A stretch of 64,000 nucleotides of DNA from Strigamia acuminata (Eukaryota), in contig OX442314.1 in NCBI GenBank assembly GCA_949358305.1, positions 8,928,001 to 8,992,000 on the forward strand. The letters run 5' to 3'. Position numbers and translations under genes: made by a program. Positions 18,187 to 41,620 of the stretch are shown here, one piece after another. The notes under the pieces were generated by a model. That model did no database searches. It was given only the letters and a program-made list of their open reading frames with translations, and was not told where the DNA came from. Every line of letters starts with the position of its first letter. The stretch's first letter is position 1.

Positions 18187-18759
18187 TTATAGAAGATTGA
18201 CACAACTGGCATCGGTCCTCGATCAATCTGGAAATTCAGTCTGACGGTGAGGTGTGATGCTACTGTTGCTATTCTATTTCCGGTCAAAATACGGGTTTTA
18301 GACTTCTAAACCTGATGTTTAGAAAGTCTATTGAAACGGTTGTGACTCTGCCTGCCCCCACCTCACCCCAGCGCCACCATCGTCCTCGCACGTGTCCATT
18401 GACCCCTCGCCCGTGGTCCACTCGGGAAACCTCTTTGACCCACTTCCCCCTCTCCTTTGTTAAATAAACTTTTGGCATTCAATCTGCGGCGATCCGGGTT
18501 TTTACTTATTAAATTATGTAAATTCAATAAGCAATCGTCGTAGAGATGCCGTACAGGACTTCTACTCTGTGGCCAAATGTTTGTCTAGGGGAATGATTTT
18601 ACACAGAGTAAAGGAAAAATTAGATAGCTTTAATTGTTCAAAATACAAAGGAGGTATTATTCAAAATGTTTGGGGTCGATCTGGCTTCTTCTTCAATATC
18701 TACACTCACAGTTGACCGTTGGCTCCAAGATGGCGTCGATGGCGTCGTGTGAGCGAGGG

Positions 18760-19045
18760 ATTTTAGCGGAGTAAACTCGACGCTAAAATACGTTGCTAAA
18801 ATATTCTAAAATCCTCGCGGAGCAAGCTCGACACGAGAATACGTCTTGCACACAGCGGTTTGATTATTACAGAGCAAGCTCGACGTAACAATCCGTCTTA
18901 ACACAATTCGCTTTGTGGAGTTAAACTCAACACAAAGCCTTCAAACTAACAGAGTAAACTCGATGTTAGTTTCACACAGATTTCTTTGTGGAGCAAGCTC
19001 GACACAAAGAACTACAAATCGACAGAGCAAGCTCAATGTCAATTC
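18760..19045 (-). other. Array of seven bulged RNA hairpins in 3' LTR of element B
   Basis: Repeated core GAGYAARCTC-RA with a different 8-10 bp complementary flank each time. Confidence 0.85.
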
Positions 19046-19799
19046 ACACACAGAAATGGCTTAAATTACGTGTAGTAATTCAAGCTAGAAAGTTGCTATT
19101 CCGTACAGTGGGTACAGACCAGCGATGAAACTCAATTCGTCCAAGAATCACAGATCACACTTTGCAGTTTTGGCAGAAGTTTGACACGGTTGTGAACAGT
19201 TTGGAGGTGGAATCAAGAGTGCGGGAAGAGTGGGCCAAAACCGTTTGGCTCACTTCTAAATCTGCTCAGAAAAGCTGCGCAGATGACGAGTTGCATGAAG
19301 ATCACACACGGCCGCCTTCGGGTCGTGTGCAACAATCGAGCCGGGCACGCGCGAGGGGAAGGGATGCTCCGCCCAGGCACACGCCTAGCAGCATCATCAA
19401 AGCAATGCACGCTGCAGCGCGATTGGTTGACGCTGTTGCTGGGCCAAAACTTGCTGCAAAACACAATATTATTTGGGTAATATTGTGTCTTGTTTTATAT
19501 TTTATTAATGTATGTTTTATTTCAATTTACCTTGAAACAAAACATATAAGCTTGTTGAATATGTTTATAAGACAATTTGGAAATATGGTGCGCACTCAAA
19601 TAGGAATATTTGAGGTCACCACACTTCCCCCCCTTTTAAGAAAGAATCTTATTCTTTTCCAAAAAGAGACAGGTAAGTATAGGAATAAATACACAAGGTT
19701 TCAAAGTAAAATGGAACAGGATATATATTTATTCTTTTTTATTACAATATAAAAAAAATAAAAAAGGAATTATTTTTAATGAACGGGCGTGTTCCCTAA

Positions 19800-22700
19800 T
19801 TATTTCGGCAACATGTCCGTCGAATGATCGTTTGGATCTTTGTGCTCCGTGACGGTGCACAAAGGTCGGCCGGCGTTTGGTCCTGACCGGAAGCCAGGGT
19901 TGATGTGGAGCCACACTTGTTTGATGCGGTCCACACCATCCCTTCGTCCAAAACCCATCTCGAAATACTCCTGCGGGTCTTGAGGCGTAATTCGAGCGAA
20001 CACCAGGCGTTGATGTAGGATCCACGGCTGCTGTTCCTTGATGTGGTTTTCCAGCCACGCGAGGACTCGGTTGCATAAATCCTCGCTGTTCTGGAGAATC
20101 GTTTTCGTCGCGCTCGTTATGTAGCAAAAGGCGTATAAAGAGCGCAAACGTTGATAGGCGGTGAGGTGGGTGGCCATATTCGATCCCCTATCTCTTGGCG
20201 GCGAATCCTTTGGAGGAGGCGGCGGTGGCGGCGACTTCTTGCAGATCGAGAGGGATCTGGATCTGCGCAAAGCCGGGGTGCGCGTCTTTGGTCTGGCACC
20301 GCAGGCCACAGGCACGACGAACTCGCGATCGTCGCTGTCGAGCCACTCCATTGGAGACGAGATGTTGCAACTCGGTGCCTCGGTTGCACGGGAAACACTC
20401 GACGTTGCCGTGATGGCAGCGTGGAGTGGAGCTGCGGATGACGGTGGTGCGCCAGCGGGACGGGCGGTAGCTCGTTCTGCTGCGCGTCGCTGCTTCAGCG
20501 CAGCCCATTCCTGCCGTAGTCGAATGGCGGATCCAGCCGGAGTTTCGCCAGTCGCCTCGGCTTGTTGCGTCAATTCGGCGAGCATCGTTGGAGGATCGGG
20601 GCGAACTGACTCCCAGTCGTCCAGCAAGGCTCGTGGAAGCCCTAACGGCACGGTCCACAATCGAGTGGCGGCCGCCAGAGCAATCTGTGGGTCGGGAAAG
20701 ACTCCTTGGAACAGGATTCGAAGCAGTCCCTCCGACAATTTCCTGTTCATTTTCTGCAGCGTCCGTTGCAGTTGCTTGTCGGACTTGCACGACGCAAGCT
20801 CTCGCGCAAGCCATTGCCATTCCTTCTCACCTTCGCGGATCTGAGCGAGTTGGTATTCGTCCAGATGCGCGAGGTACATCGCTTGGGCTGTCTCGGGAAA
20901 CGATGAGAATCGCCTCCAGAGATCAGCGCACTCCTGGGCGGGAAACGGTTCGTGAGAGACGTATCCCTCAAAACGGATGACCGATGTCACTTGTGGCACG
21001 GGCACCGATGGGTCTGGTCGCATGTCGCTGGTGACTGGACGGCAAGCAAACGGCAAAGAGGTGTTGACGTCTCCTTGACCGGCTTGCAATGCGGCGATGC
21101 GTTGGTCTTCCTTCGCTATCTCGTCCGACCAGTCAATCCGGCCGGAGGAGGAAGCGCCAAGCTGTGAAGCGTTGGACCTTTCTTCACGCGACGAGAGTGA
21201 ACTCCTCGTGGAAGATTGGCGCGATTGTACTCGAGGTCGGCTTCGGGATGTGGGTCTCGACACGGACTTCGAATGTCTTTTTGGCGGCGTCGGCTCGCGT
21301 CGGTGATGTGAGCGATGACGAGCCTTCTGGAGTGGAGGCAACCCTCCAATGGCGCCTTCCCCCGACGACTGTGTTGGGGAGGAGCGACGGCCACTGTAGG
21401 GCGACCTCGAAGATCGTGACCTCGACGTGGAGCGCGGTGGCACCACGTGGATGGTGGAAGCGACCTGTACCCGGGGCTCAGGCTCTGGATACGGGTTTGG
21501 CACGAAATCAGCATGGAAACATCCGCCCATGGCTAGTTGATGCATCTCCGATTGGCATGTCGGCACCCAACGTTTCTTTCCGTCCGTTGTTACACGGAAA
21601 GATTCGTTGTAGAGGCGTACAACCTCGGCTTTGGTTTGGTCCAAGCGTTGGAAAATATCCTCCAAAATCTGTCGACGCTCCCACGCAGGAGCGTTGAAGT
21701 AACGGCGATGGTCTCGCGTTTCTTGATTGATCACTGTGAAGGCGAAGTCGAGCAACACGTTTCGCAGTGTGTGACGGTGACGACCACAACTCCCATTTAA
21801 CAATGGTACCGGGAAGAGATCGCAATAAATAAACAGTGAATACAATACGAGATAAATACAAGACAGTTTATTGTTGGTAAACAATAATATCAAGGCTAAA
21901 TTATACATAGGACTAATGCCGACATTTGGCAAGTTAACTGACTACTAAACTATACAAAGCATAGGCCAATTGGTCCTAAAATAATATCATTACGTGTCTG
22001 GGATAAGGGAGCGGTTTCCCCATCGCTCGACCTGGTTTACAGATGTCATCTAAGCCGGATGGCTGTGTCCTGGAGTCCGATATGGCTTCGCTGGTTTCCT
22101 TGGTTCGCTGTGTAAATTATCGCACGTCGATAAATCGAATGATCTGAGCATTGCGGTTGACTTTGTCTGCACCGCCACAACTTTGGGAGGATATTGGTGT
22201 AAGTAAATGTATTCATTTTACTTATCAATATTCCGCTTATGAATTATATTTAATTCATATCGTTGTGAATTCTTATTTAGATATTTTTGTGGATAAGTTG
22301 TCATCAACTTATCAGTTACATTTGCGTCTTTGATGTAATCGTGATCGTAATTAAGTCTTCTGACTTGGTTAATCAACTTGTCGCCAAGTTAATATTTAGC
22401 TGTTATAAATAAAATGAAGATTAGGCTTCCCGTCGCAACACACAATTGCCGTCGAAAGAAAATATACGCCTTGCAATGCAGAACGGTATCAAGCGTCCCC
22501 TGCGTCGCGACACGGTCGTTCGTCTGGCGATTGACGGTATCACGTACACAGGAGTCGATAGCTCGCGGCTCCGCACAGCAGTATAATCTCTCGCGGTACT
22601 AATAATAGACCGACTACTTTGGCATCGAATACCATGAGAATCAGCTTGCCAAACACTTGGTGCTACTCGTGGTTACTGTAAAACAGACTGCTTTGGCACC

Positions 22701-25700
22701 ATCCGGTGAAGGAACTAATTCTCAACAGCAACGATGCTACTTGCGGTAACGGAATACGTTCATACCGAGAAAGACCACATGGTCCTGTCCGGAGGATACT
22801 GAATTGCACAACGGCGGGTTCTCCTTCGGCGTCGCAACCGTAAACTGTAACATTTATGCAACATAATGATCCCAGCACTTCGACTTCAATTGCCGGCGGT
22901 GGCATGATTCTGTAGAATCATGCAACGGTTCTTTGTGAATAAATCAACAAAGAACCAAAAGGTTTTTTTACGTGAACAACGAATCATATTTCTTAAGTAA
23001 CAATACCAAACAGAAAATAATCAAACAGAGCTGCGGAATGGCCGATTGTTTGGGTTTATATAACCTGACTGGATTTAAGGATTAATCCAGTCATCCAATT
23101 GGAACATGGGTTCCACGAATCCCTCCAATCCCGTATCACCGGAAGTGGATACGGAGGAGCATTTATGCAAATTATGCTAATCCTTGTTACAACCGGAACT
23201 GGATACCCAGGACCGGAAATGGGTTCCACCAATCAGATTGATCGGTTGACCGATTGATCGCTAAACATTCTGTCCCGCAGAAATGGAAGTTACATTGTAT
23301 TTAACAATGTCAGATACTTAATATATATTTATATTTAATATTTAACACAATTTATTCACTTGATTAAATATACGTTTATATTTAATCATGAGGTTTTCAA
23401 GTTCGTATTCGAATTTATCGCTAATTGCGATCGCGCCATCTAGTGGCAATATGGAGCATTGACAAATGCGGGTTTTAGCAGACGAATCTTCGTAATTATG
23501 CCGTGATACTTTAGTATCATGTGGAAATTAGTGTTTATTCTTAATAAACGAACATCTTTGTATTTGAAACATCATAAATGACTTTATTCTAGACATTTAT
23601 CAGTTTTACACAGAATATTGTAAAAATACCATCATATTGGCGCAACAGCGCTTTCTTGATAGAAAATAGGCATTTATAGCCATTGTAAACCGTCATACAT
23701 CCCCCTTAATAACACAACTATATAATATTTTATAGAGTTTTCGTTATTCTCCTAATTAGCATAAATGCTATTTTCGGACTTGATGTATCTTGGAGATACC
23801 GTGACTTCCAATTTCGAATTTGAGTTTACATAAACTAACTTGAATTATCTAAGTTCTGATTTTCTGCCGAAATAATCTTTTCTAATAGCCTAAATTCAAG
23901 TCCAGAATTTATTTCCAAGTCTTCTTTTTGAAGAAACTTTCGTCATACATAAAATCATCATTTGTGTTATCACAAAATATTTATTTCATATGCCTAGTCA
24001 GATGTATCGCTATAAATATACAATAAATAGCTTTTAGATGATAAGAGTTGACAATTTAAGAATCAAAATGTCCCCCTTAATTGTCATGACCGGAGTCACT
24101 TGGTATTCTTTGTACAATTGACTAATTTTAATTTAAACTAGTTGTCTTTTAATACTGTAATATTACTTTTCGAGAATTGTTAATTCTAACTTTTATATTT
24201 TGTCCCCCTTTTCTTTAGAAGAGAGGTCATGATTTTTAGAAGAGGATTTTCTGTTTACACTATAATCGGGGAATCTTGGTGTATCATATCATGTTAATCA
24301 ACATGATTCTTTGCTAAATATTGAGCTCGCATATTTGCAAATTTCCGAGATCTCTCAGCCTGCTGTACTGATTTCTTTCAACGTTTTTTCTTTGGGCAGT
24401 TACACACAGTGTACTCACTTGGCAGTGTAAATGACCGTGACGACCCAACTTTTTGTTTTAGGTCATCTCTGGAAAACCATACATGAATGGGACCCTCATT
24501 GGAAAACCATACGTGGAAAGGACCCATATTTGGAATTGTGAAATCCCGCAACAAACGAGGGGATCTATATTTGACTCTAAGTCGTGGAACTGATGATTGG
24601 AAACCTGGGTTTTCAGTCAGTTTTTGAACATGTTGGTTTGTATTTGAAGTTTCTTCATCACCAGCTGGACTTGGTGACCGAAAACGCTTTTTTGAAGTTC
24701 TTAATTCCTCTCGTTGAGATGAATTATTCTGGATATTGCAGGGTTGCTTTCCAGACGCAAATTGTTGTATCTCCGTCAGATTGACGACTGGGACGGGTTT
24801 TAGTCGTTGGTTACGGTATTGATTTCGAAATACGAATTGTTGCGCTTCGTTTATATTTTTTAAATTCAGCTGAATTTAACTGGTATTGTTTACAATACTG
24901 TTCGAATTGATACCGGATCTCCCGTGGGTTAGTCAAAAAACTTTCTTTTTTAGGTTTAAAATCATTCTCATTATCGTGTTGGTAATACTTTTTCAAGGGA
25001 AAAGTTTGCTTGACTTTTTTTCGATTTGAAATGGGCGTTAGGTAGAATTGTCTTGGCTGGGGACTCTTCTTGGTAGACAAATCATACGTCCGCAAACATG
25101 AGTTTGTGATCGGCGATCGGGCACGTTGTTGTACGTTATTTGACTGCAAATGTTTGTTTGGAGTCCGAATATCTTTCCTTTGCGTTGATATTGGTGGCCC
25201 AAAACTTTTGTTTACGGTTCCCAATTCTTTTGATAGCGGTAGGTTAATCGACAGATTAAGGCTAGCCACATATCGTTGTGCTTCAGCTGGATTAGCATAT
25301 CGAACTGAAATTAGCTGATCTCGATTGTAAACGAGTTTTAATTTGTTCTGAACAACCGACTGGTTAGTTAACGAACTCTCTGGATGAGAATTATTAGGTT
25401 TATAATTCTCTTCCCCCTTATCTACCGAATTAGGTGGTTTAAACTTTTCTAACTTAGATCCCCTACTGGATGTTTGAAACATAGTATGAGAATCTTGATT
25501 CACTAAGTTTCGGCTGTATGTTTGTGGATTCCGTACTGGATCTTGATGTGAAGATTGAGATTGGGTACGATCTCGCCAGTTCCTAGCTTTTACATAGTCT
25601 GAAGCTTCGATTATATTTTTAAACTTGGTTTTATCCAGTCCATGACGATTACAATACAGAGTAAAATGATCGGGAATCTTTTCTGTTTGATCGCCAAGTG

Positions 25701-28700
25701 GTACAGAACTTAAATTTAAGTTTGTCTGCTTATTATTTCCTTTTGGATCGATCATATTCAATGGTTTTTGAGCCATAAAAAAATTCAAAATCTGACGATT
25801 TTAATTCTTTAATTTATAAAGAAGACGAATATAATACACTTTTCAACAAGAAACACTTCTAAACTTTACTTTTGACAAAATAAAATTAAACTTCGCGTTT
25901 GTTTGACACGTGTTAGCTTTTGCAGGTTACACGGCACACAAAATTCGAATCGTGACTGAAATCGGGACGGCGTGGTCAAGATGACTCTGGAACACGTCTT
26001 CTGGTCTGGTCTGGATGCGAATGATCAGTATCTGATCTGGTCCTCCTTTAATAGCAGGGGGCTGGGGATCCCTAGATCTCCCAACTTCTGATTGGCGGAT
26101 GTTAGTGTCGGCCAATGGTATAAAGGACGTTACATCTATTTAGTAGTTCTCTACTAAGTCCGTTCCCTTCGAGATTCAATTTTACCGATAAAATAAAATT
26201 CCTTCGGGAAGACATTCGTAAAATATTGTATTTTTCAAATGAAAATAAAATAAACTTACTTCAATCTTTTTGAACTTTGGGATTTTTACCAATCCAAATA
26301 ATTAAATAACTTTTCTTCAAAAAATATTTTTCTTTTAATTATTCCGTTAGTGTGTGATATCGTTACAACCACAACTTTAATAAAGTTTTCTCAAACTCTC
26401 AATTTTTCTTATTCTTATTCAATTATCGTTCAAATAATCATTCCTTTGTAATTGAAATCTATTTTCGATTCCCAACATTGTGTATTCATTTCCAATAGGA
26501 AGAATAATTTGACCAAGTCTTTACTTTTTCGGGTTTAAATTCCATTTTTCGAGTGTGAAAAAATAAATTTTCACCATCCATCTCCCCCTTTTTTAACAAA
26601 TTTTTTTTTAACAAATAAAAATTCGTTAAAATTCTTTAAATTTGTTTTGCGAGAAAAATTATCTAATTCTCTAATCTTCCAAAAGAAAATATTCGAAATT
26701 TTACTTTAAACGATAAAGTTATTGGTACAAATGTGTACTTGTTTTTCGGGAGAAAACTATTCGACAATCCTTTAGACTTTTGGGTAAAAATTATTCATCA
26801 AATCTTTCTTTTTTGATGACAATTGCTTTGATTTTTCGAAAGAAAATATCTAGCTAAATTCCACTTTTCCTGAGCGGACAATTGTTTTCACAATTAGTTA
26901 TTCCTTTGCGATATTTACGAAGGACGTGTCTTTGATTATTCGTTTTAATAATTTTCGTCCCCCTTATCTCTAATAACGAGATGTTTTTGCAGAGATCTTT
27001 TATCTTTTGAATGAAAGAATATTTAAATCTCAATTGTCGTAAATACCTTCATCTGCTGCAGCATTTCCTCAATTTGAACTTTTCAAATGAAAAGACAAAT
27101 CTGGAGAACTTTCACTGTCAAACTTCTATTCCTATCGCGCCAAAATTCGTAATTCACTGGTTTGGAATTCCGTATAACACGTGACACAATAACAGTATCG
27201 ATGTCACAATTAAGCAGTTTACTACTCGGTCCGCGCGAGGACATGTAAATTACTTTTTTCCGATAAAAATAATTTTTCTTTGAAAAATATTTGAAATTGA
27301 TTTTTCACAACTACTTTTGAATGAAATAAAATGAAGTTATTCCAACTTTTCGTTAATTGCTCACACATAACATTCCCTTTACTGTGGGATTTGCATCGAA
27401 ATTCCATTTTTAAAGAACCTTTCTTTTACTTATCGCAAATAAAACATATTCAATCGTTTTTCTGATTAAACTTTAACACGTAAATTACGAACGAAATATA
27501 TGATGACATTCCATTAACCTTTAGGAAAATTGACTAAATTCTTAATTTTTAGAGAAAAATAATGTATCTAGAATCTTTCCTTTTCCGAATAAAATCTATG
27601 TTCAAAATAGAAGATAAATCTTGTGCAATTCTTAGTTTTTTCGAATGGAAAAATACAACTTTTCATCAGCGGTGATTTATTTGATTTTTCCGAAAGAAAA
27701 ATAATTACTTTGAAACTTATTTTCTTCGTTTAAATCAGCTATCTGATTTTAAAGCTTCAATCCAATCAAAAAATATTCGCTCCGTAAATATTTCATGTGG
27801 CAAAGTTCATAGCCACAAATGGATTTGTTATTCCGGTTTTAAGAAATCATGTGGGAAAATGTCCGATTAGATTACTAAAAATATTCGTTGTTTTTCAAAC
27901 AGCTAAATTTCATTTTAGAAATTCTCAAAATTTGGGAGACCCAAATATCGTTGGAAACTTAAAACACTGTTAAATTTCTGAAAGGAAAGATTGAATGAAA
28001 TCCTTTTACTTTTCCGAGGGAAAGCGTTTATCGTGATTCGTAACTTTCAATGTAAAAAATACTATTCTACGTGGTCGGCAACTTCATTCGCCGCCATTTT
28101 ATATTTTCTTAATTTCCATTGTCCCGAAGGAAAAAATGTACTTTTTGTGAAAATAGTTAATTCCTTCAAATAAAGGTAATATTCATTTCGATTTGCAAAT
28201 CTTTTCTGCGAAATGGAGTGTGTTGTTTTTCTCCAACAACTAAATTATCTTTGGTACCGATGGCAGTGGAAAAATTAGTTCGCGACACTTAAATAAATCT
28301 CTACGAACCTTCTGTAACATTTCTCCGCTGTCTTTTATCTGTTGTCCGCCATAATTTCCAAGCATTCGTTCGCACCTTGCGTTGAAGGTTTGAGTAGCTT
28401 CCCTGCTGCGTTTGATACGGAGATCGACGCGTATTGCTATGGCGCGTGGTCGCTGGCTATCGGTGTCGACGTACAGTTACAAGAAACTTAATTTCTTGTA
28501 AATATTTCCAAATAGTTGCGGTGTTTTCTTCGTTTTAACTTTTCAGGTGGAAAGATAAATTCGTAAGAAGTCCGCCTTCTAAACTTGTATGTTTTTAGCT
28601 TTTCGAAATAAAACAAACTTCGAAAAAAAATATCTGTATTCTTATTTCACTCGAAACTTTTTTGATTTCTTATTTAAAATACTTCGTATTCCTTAAATTG

Positions 28701-31700
28701 TCGAACGAAAATAGTAAAGAGAGTTCACTAAACGTTTCCATTTCGTCAGTTTAACTTTTCACATGAAAATATAAACTGAAAATCTATTTGTCTGTTTTAA
28801 CTAAAATTTTTTAGTTAATATCGGATTCAAGATTCGCTTTTGCAATTCGATCGAATTAATTTGCAACCTATTTCAGTGATCGTGTGATAGGTCTATAACT
28901 TCCGAAATTCCTAGTTAAAGGACAGTTTTGGTGTTTCTCAAGAAAATAAACATGGTTTGAAACTGGTCTGTTTTTTAACTAAATCTTTTAGTTAAATATT
29001 TATCTCAAAATTCACTTTTACAATTCTATCGAATTTAATTGCAACCTAATCTCGGTGGGACCTCCACGTGTGAGATTAGGTGGTAGTCTTTGAAATCCCT
29101 AAAATCTTCAAACGAAAATAATGAAGGAAAATCTACTACGTATTTCTATTTCATCAGTTTAACTTCTTCACATGGAAATATAAACTGAAAATTTAATCTG
29201 TCTATTTTTAACTTAAATCTTTTAGTTAAATATTTATCTCCAATATTCACTGTTGCAATTCAATCGAATTTAATTGCAACCTAATCTCGGTGGGACCTCC
29301 ACGTGTGACGGTGACGACCACAACTCCCATTTAACAATGGTACCGGGAAGAGATCGCAATAAATAAACAGTGAATACAATACGAGATAAATACAAGACAG
29401 TTTATTGTTGGTAAACAATAATATCAAGGCTAAATTATACATAGGACTAATGCCGACATTTGGCAAGTTAACTGACTACTAAACTATACAAAGCATAGGC
29501 CAATTGGTCCTAAAATAATATCATTACGTGTCTGGGATAAGGGAGCGGTTTCCCCATCGCTCGACCTGGTTTACAGATGTCATCTAAGCCGGATGGCTGT
29601 GTCCTGGAGTCCGATATGGCTTCGCTGGTTTCCTTGGTTCGCTGTGTAAATTATCGCACGTCGATAAATCGAATGATCTGAGCATTGCGGTTGACTTTGT
29701 CTGCACCGCCACAACTTTGGGAGGATATTGGTGTAAGTAAATGTATTCATTTTACTTATCAATATTCCGCTTATGAATTATATTTAATTCATATCGTTGT
29801 GAATTCTTATTTAGATATTTTTGTGGATAAGTTGTCATCAACTTATCAGTTACATTTGCGTCTTTGATGTAATCGTGATCGTAATTAAGTCTTCTGACTT
29901 GGTTAATCAACTTGTCGCCAAGTTAATATTTAGCTGTTATAAATAAAATGAAGATTAGGCTTCCCGTCGCAACACACAATTGCCGTCGAAAGAAAATATA
30001 CGCCTTGCAATGCAGAACGGTATCAAGCGTCCCCTGCGTCGCGACACGGTCGTTCGTCTGGCGATTGACGGTATCACGTACACAGGAGTCGATAGCTCGC
30101 GGCTCCGCACAGCAGTATAATCTCTCGCGGTACTAATAATAGACCGACTACTTTGGCATCGAATACCATGAGAATCAGCTTGCCAAACACTTGGTGCTAC
30201 TCGTGGTTACTGTAAAACAGACTGCTTTGGCACCATCCGGTGAAGGAACTAATTCTCAACAGCAACGATGCTACTTGCGGTAACGGAATACGTTCATACC
30301 GAGAAAGACCACATGGTCCTGTCCGGAGGATACTGAATTGCACAACGGCGGGTTCTCCTTCGGCGTCGCAACCGTAAACTGTAACATTTATGCAACATAA
30401 TGATCCCAGCACTTCGACTTCAATTGCCGGCGGTGGCATGATTCTGTAGAATCATGCAACGGTTCTTTGTGAATAAATCAACAAAGAACCAAAAGGTTTT
30501 TTTACGTGAACAACGAATCATATTTCTTAAGTAACAATACCAAACAGAAAATAATCAAACAGAGCTGCGGAATGGCCGATTGTTTGGGTTTATATAACCT
30601 GACTGGATTTAAGGATTAATCCAGTCATCCAATTGGAACATGGGTTCCACGAATCCCTCCAATCCCGTATCACCGGAAGTGGATACGGAGGAGCATTTAT
30701 GCAAATTATGCTAATCCTTGTTACAACCGGAACTGGATACCCAGGACCGGAAATGGGTTCCACCAATCAGATTGATCGGTTGACCGATTGATCGCTAAAC
30801 ATTCTGTCCCGCAGAAATGGAAGTTACATTGTATTTAACAATGTCAGATACTTAATATATATTTATATTTAATATTTAACACAATTTATTCACTTGATTA
30901 AATATACGTTTATATTTAATCATGAGGTTTTCAAGTTCGTATTCGAATTTATCGCTAATTGCGATCGCGCCATCTAGTGGCAATATGGAGCATTGACAAA
31001 TGCGGGTTTTAGCAGACGAATCTTCGTAATTATGCCGTGATACTTTAGTATCATGTGGAAATTAGTGTTTATTCTTAATAAACGAACATCTTTGTATTTG
31101 AAACATCATAAATGACTTTATTCTAGACATTTATCAGTTTTACACAGAATATTGTAAAAATACCATCATATTGGCGCAACAGCGCTTTCTTGATAGAAAA
31201 TAGGCATTTATAGCCATTGTAAACCGTCATAAGTGGTCCGAAGGTATCGCGCTTCATTGCCCACTCGAGGGCGTCGCGATGACCGAATCCATCGATTAAA
31301 TAGGCGATCCGAAACTTCGTTCCCCATCGCTTGTTTAAGGCCTTGGAGAATTTGTGTCGGGCCGCCCAAAACGTCAGTCGTCCTTTCGACTTTATGATTT
31401 CTGGCGGCAATGCGTGTCGCCAGACACCAGGAGCGGTTGGAACATCGGGATGCAGTTCGAGATGTGTTTCCCGAAGCTGGATGATCTGTAAAATATTCGA
31501 AGAAATAATTAAAATCCATTTTTTCGTGTAAAATAATTATTTCCGAATTTTCAGTGAATAAAATCACGGGTGAGATTTCATTCGACAGTTTAGATTCATT
31601 AAATTTTTCAAAATATTTGAAAAATCGTGAAAAACGTTGTTTCCGACGGCTATGTTTCAATGTTGGAGCGTTACCGTAGCAACGCCTCAAAAACGAGACA

Positions 31701-32100
31701 CAGCGCCATCTGATGATAATAATGGCGGCGCCTTCTTGCGAAGGCGTTACCAACGAACTTTTCGCTTTTTCTGAGTGAAAATGCACTTTTAATTACTTTT
31801 CATGACTGAAAGGTAATTTTATTTTAAATTATTTACCCGGTCGTGTCTCTGTGCACGAGTTTCGCCGTTTGGATCGGCGAATAGGCCTCCTCGAAGTTGT
31901 GGTCGGGGCGGCGTGACTGGCAAACGAGCAGCAGCGTCGGCCAGAGCGGCTTGAGCTTCGGCGGACGCTTCGGCGGACTCTTCGGTGACATCCACGGATG
32001 TATTCGAAGTGTTTGCGGAACCAAGCAGCGTCGAATTTGTTTCTAATTCGAGGCTGTTGGCGCCGGCTTCGCTTTCTTCTTTCGGTTCCTCTCCTTCCAT
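19800..32100 (-). CDS. Element B spliced accessory ORF3 (~827 aa; 32100-31837, 31485-31232, 21765-19800), disrupted by LARD C
   Basis: Phase-0 GT-AG intron 31836-31486. Removing LARD C plus one TSD joins ..RDTFGP-L-RNVLLDF.. in frame. Arg/Ser- and Pro-rich; no TM or signal peptide. Confidence 0.75.
21770..31231 (-). mobile_element. LARD-like non-autonomous LTR element C (no gag/pol)
   Basis: 1928-bp LTRs 21770-23697 and 29304-31231 with no difference spotted; TSD AGTG; PBS TGGAGGTCCCACCGAGAT (tRNA-Gln); PPT TAAGGGGGATG; termini TA..CA in element sense. Confidence 0.92.
24600..25776 (-). CDS. LARD C internal ORF of unknown function (frameshifted near 24855)
   Basis: ~321-aa ORF from MAQKP..; repeated motif F..YC....L....FKNI.EA..YV; upstream CCAAT/TATA/Inr-like elements. 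Confidence 0.5.
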
Positions 32101-32308: not shown

Positions 32309-35300
32309 TTACGTTTGGGTAACGTCGCTGTTAGTGACGTCATCCAATCTTATTGTTTGATTGGTTTGAGTATGGCTTGAGGAATTGCTCCTTACGTCAT
32401 ACGGCTGATCCCTGGATCTCGAGGTTAGCGAGGGGAGAAGACACATGTTGTTTTTTCCTCTCGGTTTACGAGTCCGAAGATTATATCTCTTTGTCGGCGA
32501 GGGATTTATTGTATTTAAATCGCCGTCTTCATTGTCATCGGAGACTGAGTCAGATGAGTCTTTTATTTCAGATGTTTTTTGTTTCTTTTCTAAAAACACC
32601 TTTTTATTTAATTTTTTAGCAATTTCAAGCTTTTTGAAACTGTCACGAAGTTCAACGTCGTTATTCACGAGGTCTGACTCCATTTGTGGTTTGGATGAAT
32701 TATCGACAGGTATTTTCTTTAATTCATCGTCATCTAACGTATTAATTATATTTTCAGTCTTTTGACCGACTTCTTCGCCTTCTAACCATACTTCCTGATC
32801 GAAACTCGGGAAATACGGAGTTAATTCAGACGAATGGACAGCTGGAAATATTTCGTTATTTTCTAGCTTTCTCAATTCTACGGATCCTCCCTGTAATACT
32901 TTGGTTATTACATATGGTCCTGTTCTTTTATCAGCGATGCCAGCTGCAATGCCGCGGGCAGCGCTCGACAAAACATGAGAATCTCTCCAAACTAAATCGT
33001 TTAATTTAAAATTGGAGAACTTCTCACCTTCTTTTTTAAGATTTACTCGTCTACGCAAATCTAACACGTGTGACATCATGTGCTGATATGTTTCGGCGAT
33101 AACGGCTTCTAATTTTTGCACGTATAAATGTGGGTTTTTTGGATCTACGACCAAAATTCCTTCAGGTATTCTTGGATCCCAAGGTACTCTGAGTTCGCGA
33201 AAAAAGTTAAGAAATGCGGGAGAGAAGTCTCTTCCTCTCGTCACCGTAGTTCTCAAACTAAATGCAAATTCACGCAAATATTCGTCCCATTTGGAATGAA
33301 CAGATGAATAAATTGCAACCAAATATTTGATGTCACGGTTAACCCTTTCAACCGGGTTAGCTTGTGGGTGATACGTTGAAGTTGGTGTTGGAACCATCTT
33401 GAACTTTTCACAAAATTTTTTAAAGACTTGGGCACGAAATTGCGGGCCGTTGTCAGAAATAATTTTACGAGGGAATCCCATGCTCATGGAAAGGTGATAA
33501 ATGCAATTTGCCACTTTTCCAGCAGTGGGGTTACACATTGGATATAATTCTGGCCAATGAGTTGCCACGTCAAGTATGACTAAAATATGTGTGTTGTTTT
33601 TGCGCGTCCGAGGTTTCGGGCCGGTCAAATCAACACTTAGGCAGTCAAATGGGCTGTAAGGACCCATTTGCGCTGCTTCAATTTGTCCTTTCGTTCGAGG
33701 CTTGCAAGCTTGACAACGCTCGCAATGTCGAATGAATCTCGTAATGTCCGATTTCATGCCTTTCCAGGTATAAATTCGGCGTGCTCGATAAAGAGTCCTT
33801 GCAATTCCTGGGTGGCCAGAAAGTGGGTGGCCATGCATCAGCCAAATAATTTTATACTTCAATGTCTGAGGTACAAAAACTTTGAGTGCTCTCCCATCCT
33901 CCCCCAATTCATCAGACATTGTGGGATGAAATTGCATTAATAAGTCGTCTTCAATTAAGAAGGTGGTTGCGTGTTTTCTATATTGTTTCCTCTGGAGTCG
34001 CGTTGTGACGTCAGGCGGAAATTGATTACAATTTAAAAAATTACGCATCAATTGGCACACTTTATCTTCTTTCTGTGCCTTAATTATGTCTTCCCTTGTG
34101 GGAGGTTCACAATCAAGACGTTCTACAATTTTGGCGACAAATGCTTTTATTAAAACATTTGACGAAGGAACTTGGAATTTCCTTGAAATTTGCGCTCTTA
34201 TGACGTCATCTGATTCCTCAGAGGGGTCATAGATTTTAGTCCAATAGTTGACGAATTCATGATCTTCCTTTTCCTCCAGCGTGGAGACAGGAAGCTCATG
34301 AAACTTTCCCATTTTCCAATTTCGTTGAGGTGATGGACAGTAAGATAATAATTCGTCATTATCTCCATCATCTTCAGGATTTTCCGGTTTGTCAATCGGT
34401 GATCTGGATAAAGCATCCGCTAAAACATTTAGTGGACCTTTAATGTATTGTATTTCGAAAGAATAGCGCATCAGCTCCATTTGCCAACGCGCTAACCTTC
34501 CGGCAGGTTCGTCTAACTGCATCAACCATTTTAGTGCTTGATGGTCAGTCCTAACTATGAATGTGGTAAATTCCAAATAATGTCGAAATTTACGTAATGC
34601 CCAGATTACCGCTAGGCACTCCAATTCTGTGGCGCTGTAATTTATCTCAGCAGGTTGCAAACTTCTGCTGGCATAAACACAAGGCACTTCGATATTTTGA
34701 TCATCGATTTCCCTCATTTGCATAAGCGCGGCGCCTAGTCCTTTTCTGCTGGCGTCGGTATGCACAATAAATGGTTCTGTCAAATCAGGCATGGCCATTG
34801 TTTCTGCATTTGTTAAAGCATCTTTTATTTGATCAAAAGCTTCTTGATGAATTTCTGACCAAATAAATTCCACATCCTTTTTGAGTAAAGGACGTAGAGG
34901 TTCCGTCATGACTGCTAGATTCTTGAGTAATCGGTGAAAAAAGTTCACCATTCCCAAAAATCTCTGCAACTCTTTCAAATTTGAAGGAGCTGGCATTTCT
35001 TTAATGGCGGCGACTTTTTTAGGGTCGACACTAACTCCGTGAACACTTAACTTGTAGCCAAGAAAAGTTAATTCTTTTCTGCCAAATTTTGATTTTTCTG
35101 GATGAACATGAAGATTTGCATTTTCAAGTTTACTCAGAATTTCTTCTAGATGAATCATGTGTTCTTCAAAATTTTTAGATATAATAATTATATCATCGAG
35201 GTATGCCCATGCGAATTTTCGATAGGCGTCCCCCAAAATCTTCTCTATCAACTTTTGAAAAGTTGACGGCGCATTTACGAGGCCAAAGGGCATGACTCGA

Positions 35301-36790
35301 AATTGTAGTCGACCCAAAGGGCTCCAAAACGCAGTTTTAGCACGGTCGTTCGGATGAACCTCTATTTGCCAATAGCCTTTTGACAAATCTATTGTTGTGA
35401 CCCATTCAAACCTTCCGAGTTCTCGCAAGATTTCCTCAATGCTCGGCATTTGAGGAGGGTCGTATAATGTATGTGCATTGAGTGGTCTAAAATCAATGCA
35501 GAGTCTCGGATCACAATCCGGACGCATCACTAGAACTATTCGCATTCCATAGTCTCCAGTGGCTTGTTCAACGTATCCATTATCCAACATGTCTTGACAG
35601 ATTTGACGGATAATTTCACGTTTTTGTGGATTTACACTTTTAAACGGAACTCTAATAGGAACTTTAGTGTCCAGTTTAATTTCATGCCTAACGAGGTGTG
35701 TTCTACCTGGTCGGCGTGATAAAATCTTTTCATGTTTCTTTAATACTTTTTCAAGCATTAAATTATTTTCCATTGACAAATTAGCGTCGCTAACAAGTCT
35801 TTGTACTATATTTTCTTCATTTGCAACTTTAGCTTGACACGCAGTGGCAGAGCCAGCTTTCATGTGATTTGCTTTAATAAAGTCGCGTCTCATGATTTCT
35901 TCGGGTGGATCAAGGAACTCTTGATAACGATCAAGAATCGCTTGAGGAACAAAAGGTAAATCTTCTTTCAAAGACTTGACAAAATTCCAAGACATGGTCT
36001 TAGGATTTGGTTGAATATTGAGTCGATTCATGAAATCACATCCTAATAAAATAATAGGATATTTATTTCTTAAAATTATGAATGGATGACTTAACATCCC
36101 GTGTGTCCACGCAAAAGAAAGTAGGAGAGTTCCTTCAGGGACTACATCTTCAGAAGCAGTCGTAACTCTCACATCCGGTCCAATTGGTCGAATTTCATCT
36201 TCCAGTTTCAGCGAAATTACTACGGAGTAGGCCATGAAGCTTCGATTAGCTCCAGAGTCTAACATCCCTGTTATCATACCGTTTGCCGTCTGCAATCGAA
36301 TCGTCGGCAAATCATTGCTGTTTGGTATGTCCGCGTACTTGCACTTAAAACGTCGCGGTGGCTTAATTTCTATCGGCGGATCTAATGGTAATTCGTCCAA
36401 TAAATCATTAGTGACTAGCGTTGCAGCCATTAATTTTTCAATACATTCATCAAGACCAGGTAAATCAATTTTATCTGACCTTTCAATGATTTCAGGTGTT
36501 GGCCTAGTTTTTTCATCAAGTAAAGTAACAGCATCTTTTATTTTAGATTCCCAATCAATTTTTATTTGTTGAACTTTTTCTTTAAAAAATTCTTCAGTGA
36601 TGTTCTCATTTTGCAGCACAAGCCTTAAATTGGAAACATCAATTTTTGGAAATATTAAATTATTTTCTAATTCTAATTTAATCTGAGTATTTAAAAAATC
36701 ATCTAAAATTTGAGATGGTGTTAGTTCATTTTCCGAGGCGGTAGGCGTCGCATCCACTAGACCGTCGGGATGCGCGCTTACAAGTTTTTT
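32309..36790 (-). CDS. pol: Element B Pol (PR-RT-RNase H-IN), translated by -1 frameshift from gag
   Basis: LDSGA protease; RT LCIDFRPLN, IDLSKGYWQ, MPFGL, YLDD; RNase H TDAS/ELE/TDH/DALS; IN HHCC and D-D-E; uninterrupted ORF. Confidence 0.95.
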   Translation of the reverse strand, partial: KKLVSAHPDGLVDATPTASENELTPSQILDDFLNTQIKLELENNLIFPKIDVSNLRLVLQNENITEEFFKEKVQQIKIDWESKIKDAVTLLDEKTRPTPEIIERSDKIDLPGLDECIEKLMAATLVTNDLLDELPLDPPIEIKPPRRFKCKYADIPNSNDLPTIRLQTANGMITGMLDSGANRSFMAYSVVISLKLEDEIRPIGPDVRVTTASEDVVPEGTLLLSFAWTHGMLSHPFIILRNKYPIILLGCDFMNRLNIQPNPKTMSWNFVKSLKEDLPFVPQAILDRYQEFLDPPEEIMRRDFIKANHMKAGSATACQAKVANEENIVQRLVSDANLSMENNLMLEKVLKKHEKILSRRPGRTHLVRHEIKLDTKVPIRVPFKSVNPQKREIIRQICQDMLDNGYVEQATGDYGMRIVLVMRPDCDPRLCIDFRPLNAHTLYDPPQMPSIEEILRELGRFEWVTTIDLSKGYWQIEVHPNDRAKTAFWSPLGRLQFRVMPFGLVNAPSTFQKLIEKILGDAYRKFAWAYLDDIIIISKNFEEHMIHLEEILSKLENANLHVHPEKSKFGRKELTFLGYKLSVHGVSVDPKKVAAIKEMPAPSNLKELQRFLGMVNFFHRLLKNLAVMTEPLRPLLKKDVEFIWSEIHQEAFDQIKDALTNAETMAMPDLTEPFIVHTDASRKGLGAALMQMREIDDQNIEVPCVYASRSLQPAEINYSATELECLAVIWALRKFRHYLEFTTFIVRTDHQALKWLMQLDEPAGRLARWQMELMRYSFEIQYIKGPLNVLADALSRSPIDKPENPEDDGDNDELLSYCPSPQRNWKMGKFHELPVSTLEEKEDHEFVNYWTKIYDPSEESDDVIRAQISRKFQVPSSNVLIKAFVAKIVERLDCEPPTREDIIKAQKEDKVCQLMRNFLNCNQFPPDVTTRLQRKQYRKHATTFLIEDDLLMQFHPTMSDELGEDGRALKVFVPQTLKYKIIWLMHGHPLSGHPGIARTLYRARRIYTWKGMKSDITRFIRHCERCQACKPRTKGQIEAAQMGPYSPFDCLSVDLTGPKPRTRKNNTHILVILDVATHWPELYPMCNPTAGKVANCIYHLSMSMGFPRKIISDNGPQFRAQVFKKFCEKFKMVPTPTSTYHPQANPVERVNRDIKYLVAIYSSVHSKWDEYLREFAFSLRTTVTRGRDFSPAFLNFFRELRVPWDPRIPEGILVVDPKNPHLYVQKLEAVIAETYQHMMSHVLDLRRRVNLKKEGEKFSNFKLNDLVWRDSHVLSSAARGIAAGIADKRTGPYVITKVLQGGSVELRKLENNEIFPAVHSSELTPYFPSFDQEVWLEGEEVGQKTENIINTLDDDELKKIPVDNSSKPQMESDLVNNDVELRDSFKKLEIAKKLNKKVFLEKKQKTSEIKDSSDSVSDDNEDGDLNTINPSPTKRYNLRTRKPRGKNNMCLLPSLTSRSRDQPYDVRSNSSSHTQTNQTIRLDDVTNSDVTQT
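36745..36790 (-). other. -1 programmed ribosomal frameshift signal
   Basis: A_AAA_AAC (36790-36784) just before the gag TAA, followed by CGCATCC..GGATGCG stem; the -1 frame opens into pol. Confidence 0.8.
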
Positions 36791-39672
36791 AGAAGTTCGC
36801 CGATTGATTTCATCGATTTTTCGAACTCCTCAATAATCTTGTCTTTGCTCGTTTTCCTATCAGGACATTCTTTAGCCCAATGTCCTAATTTTTTGCAAAT
36901 GTTACACGGGTCAGTAGCAGGTGATTTTGCGACTTTTGGCGAAGGCGAGCTTGAGCGTTTGGCTTCGTCCTTTTTCGGGGTCGGCGACTTCAATCTACTG
37001 AGCGCGTCTGTCTTTGGTGAACCAAAAGTAACGTTTTTAGGCGCCATCTTTGGTCCAAATTTTCGAGCTACTGCGTTATTACGGGCTAATAAAGCAGCTG
37101 CAGCCTCGCTTTCTGGTTCCGAGTCAGATTTCTCTGGTTCAGAAGCAGCTTCCATATCTGTCACTTCGGCTAAGTGAGCTTTAGGGGTTGGATGTGGATT
37201 TTTCCCATCCGATCCCTTTCTAGATTCCTTAGCAGTCTCTGCCAAAAAATCTCCTCGTTTTGGGGGTTGCAAAAGAGGGGTGTTAGCAAAACGTGTGTCT
37301 TTTGCCAACTCCTTTCTCCGTTGCTGTCGCTTAGCGTACGCAACTTTTTCATCAGCTGGTAGATAAGCTTTATAATTTTCGTCAATCCTTATCTGATTAG
37401 CTCGCATAAATTTGGCTAATTCAGCGAAACCACCCGGATAAGGTGCTCGTACAGAAAGTAGAACATTTTTTGAGTAATCTGTCAATCCACGACGGAATTG
37501 ACGATCAATGGCTGCGTCTCCCATCGTATACGGGAGAGTGACCAATAAATCCTCAGTCCTTCTTAAATAAGAGCGAAGACTTTCGCCTTTATTTTGAGAA
37601 AGATTATCCCACATTTGTAATAAGTCTTCACTTGACTCTCCATACTCAGTCATGAATTCTTCTACAAAGTGGTTCCAGTTTTGAAATTGTTTAGAATAAA
37701 ACCATTTCTCAGCTCGATCTATAAGAGCTTTTGGTACTACTCTTTTCAAAGCAGTGTGACATGCAATGCCATTCAACCTTGAAATTCGTAAAACTTCATC
37801 TAAAAGAGTGGATCCAGCTTCCCATTCTCCATCGAATAAAGCGGGTTTGATGTGATCCCATCTAATAGTTCTTTCATCAACTAGATCGTGAGTCCAGTTG
37901 TTGGCAGTATATTGAGCAATTTTCTGTCGTAGTGCAATGTCAGCATTATCGGCAGTAGCGTCAGATCGATCGGAAGATCGACGATCAGCTAATAATCGAT
38001 CAATTTCTTCAGCAGTGTAATAATGTGTATTACGCCGTGAAGAGTGGCTTCGATGTCGACGTCGATGAGATCGATGTCGATTATCGCGTTCTTGTTGCGC
38101 ATTCGCATCAGAATCCGATCTTGAATCAGATTGTGAATTTGAAGGTGTGTTGAAATGTGGTGTTTCAGGTGGGTCGGGTGGGTCGCCGTCATCATCTGGT
38201 GGTCGACGTCCACCTCCAGGCGGTCCATCTCCATGTCCATCTGGATTTCTTCCATTTGGTGGATTTCTCCTATACTGACCCCCACCTGGCGGGCTTTCAT
38301 GTCCGTCGGGTGGTTCGCGTGCTGGATTCATTTCTCGTCGACTTCTTTTCGACGAATCTTGTTGTTGCGTCAGTGGTATCGTTCGAGCAACGTGAATACC
38401 TGTTTCATGCCGCCTATTTCGATCGTCTACCATCCCCAGCAGTCGGTCACTGTTGTGAAAAATAGGATTTCGATTACCTGGGAGCGGATTGCGATCAGCT
38501 CTCCGTTCCTCGGAATCTGAAGGACGTTTTCTTTTTGAGCGATGGCGGCGACGCGAACGTTGGTCGTCATCACTCGATAATCCAGATTGGCTACTTAACT
38601 CTGAAACAACGGAAATTGTTATTGTTTCGGGAGTCAAAATAGGGACAGTTGGCGCAGCCATTTCTGGTTGCACCAATTGGTCAGTATAATTCCTTGCTTG
38701 CAAACGATCTTTCATTTCTGCAAGCTCTTCTTGGGCGCGCAACAAATCAGCTCGGAGAATTTCATTCTCATTTAGTTGACTTTGCGATTCTTCTGGTTGT
38801 AATCGCTTAGCAGGGTTGCTAGACTTGACTTGTCCGCTCGTACTGGGTTGATCCAGCGAGTGAAAAATCTCGTCTTCACGCTTAGCTATTTTGCTTTCGC
38901 GAGTACGCTGTGTTTTAGCACGTGTGTCTAATTCAGCAGCATATCTCACTAGTTGATTATGATTGCGTTGGTAGTGGTCTGCCAAATCAATCAATTCTTT
39001 ATTTTTCTGCTCCAGCTTACTTTTGGTAAGCTCGAGCTGTCTTCGCGCCTCTTGGTGTGAGCGAATTGAAAGTTCATTTCTAGTGTTCATTTTAGAAAGA
39101 TCTTCCACTTCACCTTTTAATCGGTATTCTCTAGCTTTTTGGGCTAGAAATTCCTCATTTTGTCGATTGAGTTCCATATGTTGGAGTTCAACCTCCGCTT
39201 TTTGTTGTTGAAGCTCAGCTTCTTTTCGTTCCATTTCAAATTGTAAATTTGAAACGGCACGATCAGTGTGAAGTCGTATCATGGCGCGATGAATCTCTTC
39301 CACCGTCATGTCGTCCGTTATTTGGGCGCCATCTTGGCGTGCTTGATTTCTCAAAGCATCCAACATGGTCATGCGAGGAGGTGATTCGTGAGACGATTCA
39401 CTTTCCATTTCACGTAACGTATTTTCCACTTCCTCCAGTGGAAGTGGCGGGAGTTCTTGGTCGTTAGAACTCGCACTTGAAGCGCTTAATGCTCTAGCAA
39501 CTTCATTTTCAGCATCCTTAAGTTGTTTCGGATCTGGAACTGGTGTTATTTCTTCAGAAATAATTTTCTCTGTAAGCATTTCAGGCTCGAGAGCCGGCAA
39601 AACCGTCGCTGCTCGTTTCTGAGTGCTTGGTCGACCTCGCTGTCGTTTTACAATTTGCATTGGCGTCGCCAT
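36778..39672 (-). CDS. gag: Element B Gag (964 aa)
   Basis: N-terminal RGRP AT-hook, coiled coil, capsid-like 'VVPKALIDRAEKWF..Q..GESLRSY', CCHC knuckle CNICKKLGHWAKEC. Confidence 0.9.
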   Translation of the reverse strand: MATPMQIVKRQRGRPSTQKRAATVLPALEPEMLTEKIISEEITPVPDPKQLKDAENEVARALSASSASSNDQELPPLPLEEVENTLREMESESSHESPPRMTMLDALRNQARQDGAQITDDMTVEEIHRAMIRLHTDRAVSNLQFEMERKEAELQQQKAEVELQHMELNRQNEEFLAQKAREYRLKGEVEDLSKMNTRNELSIRSHQEARRQLELTKSKLEQKNKELIDLADHYQRNHNQLVRYAAELDTRAKTQRTRESKIAKREDEIFHSLDQPSTSGQVKSSNPAKRLQPEESQSQLNENEILRADLLRAQEELAEMKDRLQARNYTDQLVQPEMAAPTVPILTPETITISVVSELSSQSGLSSDDDQRSRRRHRSKRKRPSDSEERRADRNPLPGNRNPIFHNSDRLLGMVDDRNRRHETGIHVARTIPLTQQQDSSKRSRREMNPAREPPDGHESPPGGGQYRRNPPNGRNPDGHGDGPPGGGRRPPDDDGDPPDPPETPHFNTPSNSQSDSRSDSDANAQQERDNRHRSHRRRHRSHSSRRNTHYYTAEEIDRLLADRRSSDRSDATADNADIALRQKIAQYTANNWTHDLVDERTIRWDHIKPALFDGEWEAGSTLLDEVLRISRLNGIACHTALKRVVPKALIDRAEKWFYSKQFQNWNHFVEEFMTEYGESSEDLLQMWDNLSQNKGESLRSYLRRTEDLLVTLPYTMGDAAIDRQFRRGLTDYSKNVLLSVRAPYPGGFAELAKFMRANQIRIDENYKAYLPADEKVAYAKRQQRRKELAKDTRFANTPLLQPPKRGDFLAETAKESRKGSDGKNPHPTPKAHLAEVTDMEAASEPEKSDSEPESEAAAALLARNNAVARKFGPKMAPKNVTFGSPKTDALSRLKSPTPKKDEAKRSSSPSPKVAKSPATDPCNICKKLGHWAKECPDRKTSKDKIIEEFEKSMKSIGELLKNL

Positions 39673-40039
39673 TTTGTCAAATTGAAAAAGAACAATGGAA
39701 ATAAAGGATTTTTTCGCAAAAATCGGGTTTTAACAATCAAAACTATCCCGGCCGGGCCCCCAAGTGCGGCGATCCGGGTTTTTACTTATTAAATTATGTA
39801 AATTCAATAAGCAATCGTCGTAGAGATGCCGTACAGGACTTCTACTCTGTGGCCAAATGTTTGTCTAGGGGAATGATTTTACACAGAGTAAAGGAAAAAT
39901 TAGATAGCTTTAATTGTTCAAAATACAAAGGAGGTATTATTCAAAATGTTTGGGGTCGATCTGGCTTCTTCTTCAATATCTACACTCACAGTTGACCGTT
40001 GGCTCCAAGATGGCGTCGATGGCGTCGTGTGAGCGCGGG

Positions 40040-40325
40040 ATTTTAGCGGAGTAAACTCGACGCTAAAATACGTTGCTAAAATATTCTAAAATCCTCGCGG
40101 AGCAAGCTCGACACGAGAATACGTCTTGCACACAGCGGTTTGATTATTACGGAGCAAGCTCGACGTAACAATCCGTCTTAACACAATTCGCTTTGTGGAG
40201 TTAAACTCAACACAAAGCCTTCAAACTAACAGAGTAAACTCGATGTTAGTTTCACACAGATTTCTTTGTGGAGCAAGCTCGACACAAAGAACTACAAATC
40301 GACAGAGCAAGCTCAATGTCAATTC
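40040..40325 (-). other. Array of seven bulged RNA hairpins in 5' LTR of element B
   Basis: Same array as 18760-19045. Confidence 0.85.
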
Positions 40326-41186: not shown

Positions 41187-41620
41187 ATGGCCGCCACAAT
41201 GAACGCCAACTTCTTGAACACCGCCGACGCACGAACGCTACTACGCTCCACCAACGAACGACTTCTGAACAGGTTTACTATCGCCGAATTACGCACCGAA
41301 TGCGATACCAGGGAACTCCTGGTACCGGCAGGGGCGAACAAGGACGCGCTGGTCGCCGCACTACTAGCACAGAACATCGCCGCACCGGCCAATTTGGCCG
41401 GCCCCACCGCATTGCCACTAACGGACCCACGCATCAACGACATGGCCACGGTTTTGGCCCTGCTGTCCGCGCACGTTCTGAGCCCGTCCACCACGCCACG
41501 CGTTCGACACGTTCATGGTCAACGATGGAGATCGTGCTTGGAAAGCACATGCGTCACAGCTGAAGCCCGACGTCCCGCGCCAGCAATCAGGGGACGATTG
41601 CACTTCAGTTGGGGGGGGCG
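41187..41620 (+). pseudogene. TRIM internal Gag remnant with SAP/HeH-like motif
   Basis: 'FTIAELRTECDTRELLVPAGANKDALVAALL' fits a SAP-like pattern; ORF runs into the 3' LTR. Confidence 0.5.

Follow-up and report, generated by a model that had tools for sequence, protein, structure and literature searches.

The long terminal repeats (LTRs) of a Ty3/gypsy retrotransposon of Strigamia acuminata carry an array of seven hairpins that arose by tandem duplication of units and whose structure was maintained by compensatory changes. We regard the array as a selected and apparently undescribed cis-element of the kind that serves retroelements as RNA-protein response element. It lies on the - strand of the analysed stretch of DNA (the window, 64,000 nt of contig OX442314.1), at nt 576-864 of the LTR of this retrotransposon, here named element B, and is present in both LTRs. 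The copy in the 5' LTR is located at 40040..40328 (-); the positions of the single hairpins (HP1 to HP7) are given below for the 3' LTR. A first-pass annotation had proposed seven TAR-like hairpins at this place, and we found that the array is real, that it is repeated at 40040-40328, and that each unit folds alone as stated there.

Element B is a Ty3/gypsy LTR retrotransposon with LTR ends, target-site duplication, primer-binding site, polypurine tract, and the order of domains from gag to pol all present. Its 3' LTR (18485..19623) and 5' LTR (39765..40903) comprise 1,139 bp each and are, like all other parts of elements B and C named here, on the - strand; the 3' LTR shows TG...CA ends and an AATC target-site duplication. 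The LTRs are 99.8% identical, and their alignment confirmed that just two positions differ, namely 18756 and 18871. Element B is a young copy. The polypurine tract is found at 19624..19637 and the primer-binding site, which we take to be tRNA-Pro-like, at 39745..39762. The gag frame (36778..39672; Retrotrans_gag domain, CCHC knuckle, and a long arginine-run N-terminus) begins with an ATG at 39672, just 92 nt beyond the LTR. The pol frame (32309..36829) encodes reverse transcriptase (RT), RNase H, and integrase in the Ty3/gypsy order, and its RT-RNase H region was at most 46% identical to the 120 relatives listed. An accessory frame, ORF3, follows pol and is interrupted in this copy by the nested LTR element C (21770..31231; identical LTRs of about 1.93 kb). 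Without element C, element B has a length of about 12.95 kb.

Element C has TA...CA ends (- strand), LTRs of 100% identity, and a 4-bp target duplication. In its AT-rich interior of 5.6 kb, no pol was found; the two ORFs present there (329 and 165 aa) are of low complexity and gave no Pfam match, and the interior stems showed a G.U to A.C ratio of 8:0 on the - strand. Element B itself sits in one LTR of the tiny element D (18341-18484 and 40904-41810), which by its short LTRs and its interior of less than 1 kb resembles a TRIM. Element A (7879-16432), a second young gypsy element with 1,004-bp LTRs of 99.6% identity and a stop in the pol frame at about 11873, is inserted within an AT-rich 21-nt satellite. 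No hairpin array comparable to that of element B was found in elements A and C. The window also harbors an ORF for a Tc1/mariner-type transposase (6003-7424, 473 aa), a host calpain gene (57767-61863) with exons 67-82% identical to Strigamia maritima, and, at 44800-55500, exons that we take by eye to resemble a gene of the glutamate carboxypeptidase II family.

Read in element sense, all units of the array follow the same pattern: a stem of 8-12 bp, a purine, a U(C/U) bulge, GAG, a CUUG or UUUA loop (UUUAA in one case), CUC, and a pyrimidine. With G.U pairs counted, the lower stems of HP1 to HP7 have lengths of 12, 9, 9, 8, 10, 9, and 9 bp. The stem length of 8-10 bp proposed earlier thus applies to HP2-HP7, but not to HP1 (19013..19048), which reaches 12 bp through outer G.U pairs (four in total) and carries a UU bulge and the head GAG-CUUG-CUC. 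HP2 (18982..19011) has a UC bulge and a CUUG loop. HP3 (18943..18972; UC bulge, UUUA loop) is a duplicate of HP1 with arms identical at 6 of 8 positions, and HP4 (18910..18938; UU bulge) is a duplicate of HP2 with arms identical at 7 of 8 positions. The 5-nt UUUAA loop of HP4 accounts for the one hairpin that had been described as having a loop larger by 1 nt. HP5 (18862..18893; UC bulge, CUUG loop) shows a private C-to-U change at 18871, HP6 (18811..18840; UC bulge, CUUG loop) contains two G.U pairs, and HP7 (18760..18789) combines a UC bulge with a UUUA loop. A 14-nt head pattern, which HP4 does not match, occurred 12 times in the window (expected 0.52), and all of these matches fell into the two arrays. 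Directly upstream of HP1, an AU-rich hairpin with a UACAC loop is located at 19059..19085 (-), and a similar long AU-rich hairpin with a UACAU loop is found at 18502-18534, at the LTR end beside the primer-binding site.

When folded singly, each of the seven hairpins adopted the expected structure with z-scores between -2.0 and -4.6. In the minimum free energy structure of the whole 296 nt, five of the seven were formed, and HP2 and HP6 cross-paired. The mean pairing probability of the lower stems was 0.38-1.0 when the whole LTR was folded and 0.64-0.99 when the span was limited to 150 nt. The whole array had a lower z-score on the + strand (-4.26) than on the - strand (-3.01), and four of the seven hairpins were about equally stable on the + strand.

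Several counts revealed selection on pairing. Within fixed 8-bp cores, 52 of the 56 pairs were Watson-Crick pairs, four were G.U pairs, and none was A.C; 9-bp cores comprised 57 Watson-Crick pairs, five G.U pairs, no A.C pair, and one other among 63. Among all 5040 permutations of the arms, the native pairing within the same hairpin gave the best result. In four pairs of duplicates with 32 stem positions, 13 positions had changed: eight by double changes, five by single changes that kept the pair, and none by a change that broke it, while a random single change is expected to retain pairing in 36% of cases. A covariation alignment had 95.6% of its cells paired, 21 of them with double changes, and none of 500 shuffles, which ignore relatedness, reached this level; its seven rows comprised both versions of HP5 and five of the other hairpins, with HP4 omitted. 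Slid controls of the same alignment showed 40-53% paired cells. The earlier statement that the lower stems differ in sequence yet stay paired is therefore borne out by duplicate-pair counts, shuffles, and arm permutations alike.

The history of the array can be read from its repeats. HP3-HP4 arose from HP1-HP2 by tandem duplication of a two-hairpin unit of 72-73 nt, and HP5-HP7 share common spacers in units of 51-52 nt. We also analysed two contig runs of one study, X1 and X2, with many diverged copies of the element B family; a loose end in X2 revealed copies without element C at its insertion point. Some contigs skip 71-75 nt, approximately one two-hairpin unit, which reflects either real loss of such a unit or misplacement on repeats. 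The base exchange at 18871, which the first-pass annotation had considered as evidence for selection because pairing is retained, turned out to be uninformative in this respect. In X1, 393,168 of 393,388 depth units showed the 5'-LTR base, and in X2 98,201 of 98,471, hence nearly all copies other than this one, and 18871 is a CpG site; we therefore consider the exchange a private change after insertion. Among the 40 best-supported of 175 variant rows, a single segregating variant fell inside the array; it concerns the second base of the HP4 bulge (18929), where U and C alternate, the two bases that other units already use at this position.

Such an origin by duplication, the contigs that skip 71-75 nt, and the similar stability of four hairpins on both strands would also fit a DNA-level or neutral explanation, by which tandem duplicates of an enhancer word acquired palindromic flanks by template switching and have no function as RNA. 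We consider this very unlikely. Correction of a palindrome should remove the 2-nt bulge, yet it is kept in all seven hairpins, and G.U pairs are tolerated in the cores whereas A.C is absent. At the fourth pair of the head, both bases change together, and the pair is either C-G or U-A. A site read as double-stranded DNA has no need of paired flanks, and such flanks are absent where the same head is repeated in unrelated sequence: as control we inspected 17 loci (6 viral, 11 metagenome) with the same doubled head, and their stems comprised 0-3 bp. Because none of these stems exceeds 3 bp, the 17 loci are no relatives of the array. Pattern scans of viral and metagenome sequence did not identify a related family for comparison of conservation, and the RT patterns had no match among viral contigs.

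On the element strand, the ratio of G.U to A.C in the array was 4:0 for the 8-bp cores and 5:0 for the 9-bp cores, which corresponds to a p of about 1/16 to 1/32. For comparison, the ratio was 5:1 in the whole LTR and 9:9 in pol. This bias lends modest support to an element-sense RNA. Of the earlier claim that the structure is selected in the RNA of the element, selection of a single-strand structure stands; that this strand is the RNA of the element is probable, and the G.U bias is a weak lean in this direction. Altogether, we consider it probable that the array acts as element-sense RNA.

The head of the hairpins resembles the transactivation response element TAR of HIV-1. In TAR, arginine contacts G26, G28, and the base triple U23.A27-U38, and the arginine sandwich motif is in general characterized by a bulge pyrimidine in a triple with a stem pair (U.A-U) and a paired nucleotide before the bulge (PMC6189040, PMC7864049). 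The identities R22, U23, G26, A27, and G28 of TAR are kept in the array head. In all seven hairpins the first bulge U, its 5' purine, and GAG/CUC are invariant, and the equivalents of G26-C39, A27-U38, and G28-C37 stand above the bulge. We thus agree with the earlier description of a U-initiated bulge with the base identities of the TAR arginine motif, as judged from sequence. The features of the arginine sandwich that can be recognized at this level were found in 7/7 hairpins, with a G.U pair before the bulge in one HP5 copy. The hairpins differ from one another in the lower stem, at the fourth pair, and at the second base of the bulge, and by sequence the variation of the head follows the tolerance of TAR.

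Like HIV-1 TAR, the array thus offers within an LTR a purine pair, a pyrimidine bulge on the 5' strand that begins with U, and then G-C, A-U, and G-C pairs; in four of the seven hairpins the next C-G pair is shared as well. In contrast, the bulge comprises 2 nt in the array and 3 nt in TAR. The TAR of HIV-2 also has a bulge of 2 nt. Instead of the apical hexaloop of TAR, the array hairpins have a CUUG/UUUA cap with loops of 4-5 nt, and the seven copies extend over 290 nt at a position deep in the LTR; no clear Tat-like protein was recognized in the element. An Rfam search gave nine matches of chance level at E<=10; none belonged to the TAR family and none reached the gathering score. As the head was duplicated, the likeness to TAR counts as one event and not as seven independent matches, and since many motifs are known, agreement with one of them at 3-4 bases can be due to chance. 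By analogy with the structures of TAR and 7SK RNA, it is nevertheless somewhat probable that the units act as arginine pockets. The invariant U would cap the A-U pair two steps up and thereby sandwich an arginine above the purine that precedes the bulge, and the guanines equivalent to G26 and G28 would be read in the major groove. The CUUG/UUUA cap would only close the hairpin. In gCUUGc tetraloops the C and the G pair (PMC10401711); four hairpins of the array end with G-CUUG-C, and the three UUUA-type units switch that pair to U-A. Such a cap is generic and gives no information on the ligand.

The TAR hexaloop contacts cyclin T1 (PMC1524922), and since the array lacks such a hexaloop, we call it TAR-like but not a TAR. 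The lack of this contact also speaks against a function as in the Tat/TAR system, with ORF3 bound to the nascent array and recruiting an elongation factor. TAR consists of one hairpin of about 59 nt, which forms the 5' end (PMC6189040, PMC7864049), while the array of 290 nt begins only after the first 575 nt of the LTR. Motifs of the TATA, CCAAT, and GC-box types are found at LTR nt 55-255. Although the bulge with its flanking pairs matches TAR and the sequence CCATTTC about 10 nt before HP1 is presumably Inr-like, ORF3 has no arginine run like that of Tat and Rfam has no TAR match, so that we regard this transactivation as quite improbable.

A second RNA with a similar head is 7SK, in which the motif ASM3 of stem-loop 1 has a secondary structure identical to that of the TAR bulge (PMC6189040). 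The array and ASM3 share a bulge of two pyrimidines that begins with U, followed by G-C and A-U. They differ in that the array has no opposing symmetric motif and consists of separate hairpins, whereas the motifs of 7SK are stacked in one helix. This likeness, together with the direct binding of host NXF1 by an RNA structure of MPMV (PMC10309623), would be in line with a host protein as ligand of the array, which could then function as a 7SK/HEXIM decoy or bind a factor for export, stability, or localisation. However, a G-C pair before the bulge abolished HEXIM binding to 7SK (PMC6189040), and the array has G-C at this place in five of seven hairpins (5'-LTR version) and A in two of seven. With A in only 2/7 hairpins and no symmetric partner motif, we rejected a HEXIM decoy as the main reading. 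The signal for localisation by Egl-BicD, a helix bent by bulges of the 3' strand (PMC13186709), was rejected as well, since in element sense the array carries its bulges on the 5' strand. Overall, a host factor appears to us an improbable ligand.

As to the position of the array in the transcripts, the borders within an LTR require RNA data (PMC3601003). By motif match, a candidate early poly(A) site was found at 19457..19546 (-), with AATAAA at 19521 and 19506 (LTR nt 103 and 118) and a GU-rich stretch at about 19466-19457 (LTR nt 158-167), and a candidate late site at 18601..18634 (-), with ATTAAA at 18634 (LTR nt 990) and a U/GU-rich stretch behind it. Within the early candidate (LTR nt 78-167), AATAAA lies in the 3' arm of one hairpin and the GU-rich stretch in the 3' arm of the next; each of these hairpins has one G.U pair in element sense, and they recall, as we assume, the occluding poly(A) hairpin of HIV-1. 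Donor-like sites are present at LTR nt 94, 371, and 555. A perfect word of what we take to be the YY1 type occurs at 18727-18735 (LTR nt 889), 25 nt downstream of HP7. These motifs allow three layouts. With a start at about nt 85-330 and ATTAAA at nt 990, the array would fall into R. It would belong to U3 if transcription began near the YY1-type word (nt 889), and to a long U5 if AATAAA at nt 103/118 were used with the GU-rich stretch at 158-167. Under all three layouts the genomic RNA contains the array at least once. A location in untranscribed U3 had been named as a finding that would refute a role as RNA. This does not hold, since the U3 of the 3' LTR is transcribed and the RcRE of HERV-K works from the U3 of the 3' LTR (PMC6916052).

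Two candidate ligands are encoded by element B itself. ORF3 is predicted from the sequence to be spliced. Its 5' part (31232..32100, -) comprises an exon of 88 codons (32100-31837), a phase-0 GT-AG intron of 351 nt, and an open frame that extends up to the nested element C; an intron of 77 nt is predicted in its 5'-UTR (32185-32109, -). The 3' part (19800..21768, -) comprises 655 codons with an RS-rich stretch. Among the 23 variants listed for this part from the 40 best-supported of the 175 rows, 15 were synonymous (29% expected, p=0.0004), which suggests that ORF3 is under purifying selection; it looks functional. Because two introns are predicted for ORF3, of which the one in the coding region keeps the phase, the genomic RNA would be an RNA that retains introns. 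The 3' part did not show any homolog in searches of 5.8 billion proteins and of 1.84 billion representatives, nor a match in Pfam, PDB sequences, or the ESM Atlas, and the 5' pieces had one Pfam match that we ignored (E 0.13). Fold searches with single-sequence models of poor quality (pLDDT 41.5 and 63.6) gave nothing at E<=0.001, and at this low model confidence no sequence or fold link of ORF3 to CERV, Rev, or Tat was detected. The 655 aa contain 23 RS/SR dipeptides, at most four R in 12 residues, and one weak NES-like match. Gag has the densest arginine runs of the element B proteins (7 R in 12 and 6 R in 12). A word resembling RHRSH-R is found in basic stretches of both Gag and ORF3.

The best explanation, which we propose tentatively, is that the array bound by ORF3 licenses the export of unspliced genomic RNA. 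ORF3 would be the ligand, the seven predicted pockets would gather ORF3, and the outcome would be export of intron-containing RNA by analogy with Rec and RcRE or with CERV and Cer1 RNA. The lack of a compact arginine motif in ORF3 and the higher arginine density of Gag count against this reading. Of the functions suggested by the first-pass annotation for a platform for multimeric protein binding (transactivation, export, or packaging), a multivalent docking platform is likely as a prediction, and transactivation is the weakest of the three.

In view of its denser arginine runs, Gag as reader of the same pockets is a close rival, and the array would then be a multivalent signal for packaging or capsid nucleation in R/U5. 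We consider this possible, if rather unlikely. Gag also has the CCHC knuckle, and the 92 nt between the LTR and the gag ATG leave little space for a signal past the primer-binding site. Single-stranded UG-rich words can be sites of nucleocapsid proteins, and the array with its spacers contains 33 UGUG words per kb, about three times the density in the remaining LTR (11 per kb). A TAR-type bulge, however, is not known to be a nucleocapsid site. The choice of the poly(A) site would matter for packaging: early polyadenylation at LTR nt 103-167 would confine the array to the 5' leader, and splicing from the donor-like sites at nt 94, 371, and 555 could remove it from the ORF3 mRNA, whereas use of the late ATTAAA would leave the array on all transcripts, spliced or not, which is poorly suited for selective packaging.

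Known systems offer precedents for the export proposed here for ORF3. HERV-K also has a structured element in its LTR, the RcRE, which can act from the 3' LTR, and a spliced accessory gene, as is predicted for ORF3. The RcRE is one large fold, while the array is modular with identical small heads, and Rec is far smaller than ORF3. The RxRE of HTLV with Rex is a system of the same kind. ORF3 further differs from Rec by the absence of a clear arginine motif or NES, and element B is a gypsy retrotransposon and not a retrovirus. The Cer1 element of C. elegans requires the novel spliced protein CERV for export of its unspliced RNA (PMC10309623). Like Cer1, element B is an invertebrate LTR retrotransposon with a large novel accessory protein, the splicing of which is predicted for ORF3; in contrast, ORF3 has no link in sequence or fold to CERV. 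In the searched parts of the CERV paper no cis RNA element was found (PMC10309623), and no description of such a hairpin array was found in the literature searched, which left most subscription journals outside its scope.

How unspliced RNA of LTR retrotransposons is marked for export or packaging is largely obscure beyond yeast and Cer1. The array provides a naturally replicated unit of 30 nt, the invariant and free positions of which have been mapped by evolution, and with two candidate ligands in the same element its role is directly testable with short RNAs and peptides. A more far-reaching reading, which we hold to be possible but doubtful, is that a gypsy element of an arthropod independently evolved a regulation in the style of complex retroviruses, with seven TAR-type arginine-sandwich hairpins read by an orphan spliced protein. 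If true, accessory proteins of invertebrate LTR retrotransposons would gain with the array their first cognate response element, and the recognition code of Tat/TAR/7SK would have been reached by convergence outside vertebrates. If arginine binding is confirmed, the pocket of TAR and 7SK would be a convergent solution that an invertebrate retroelement uses in multivalent form.
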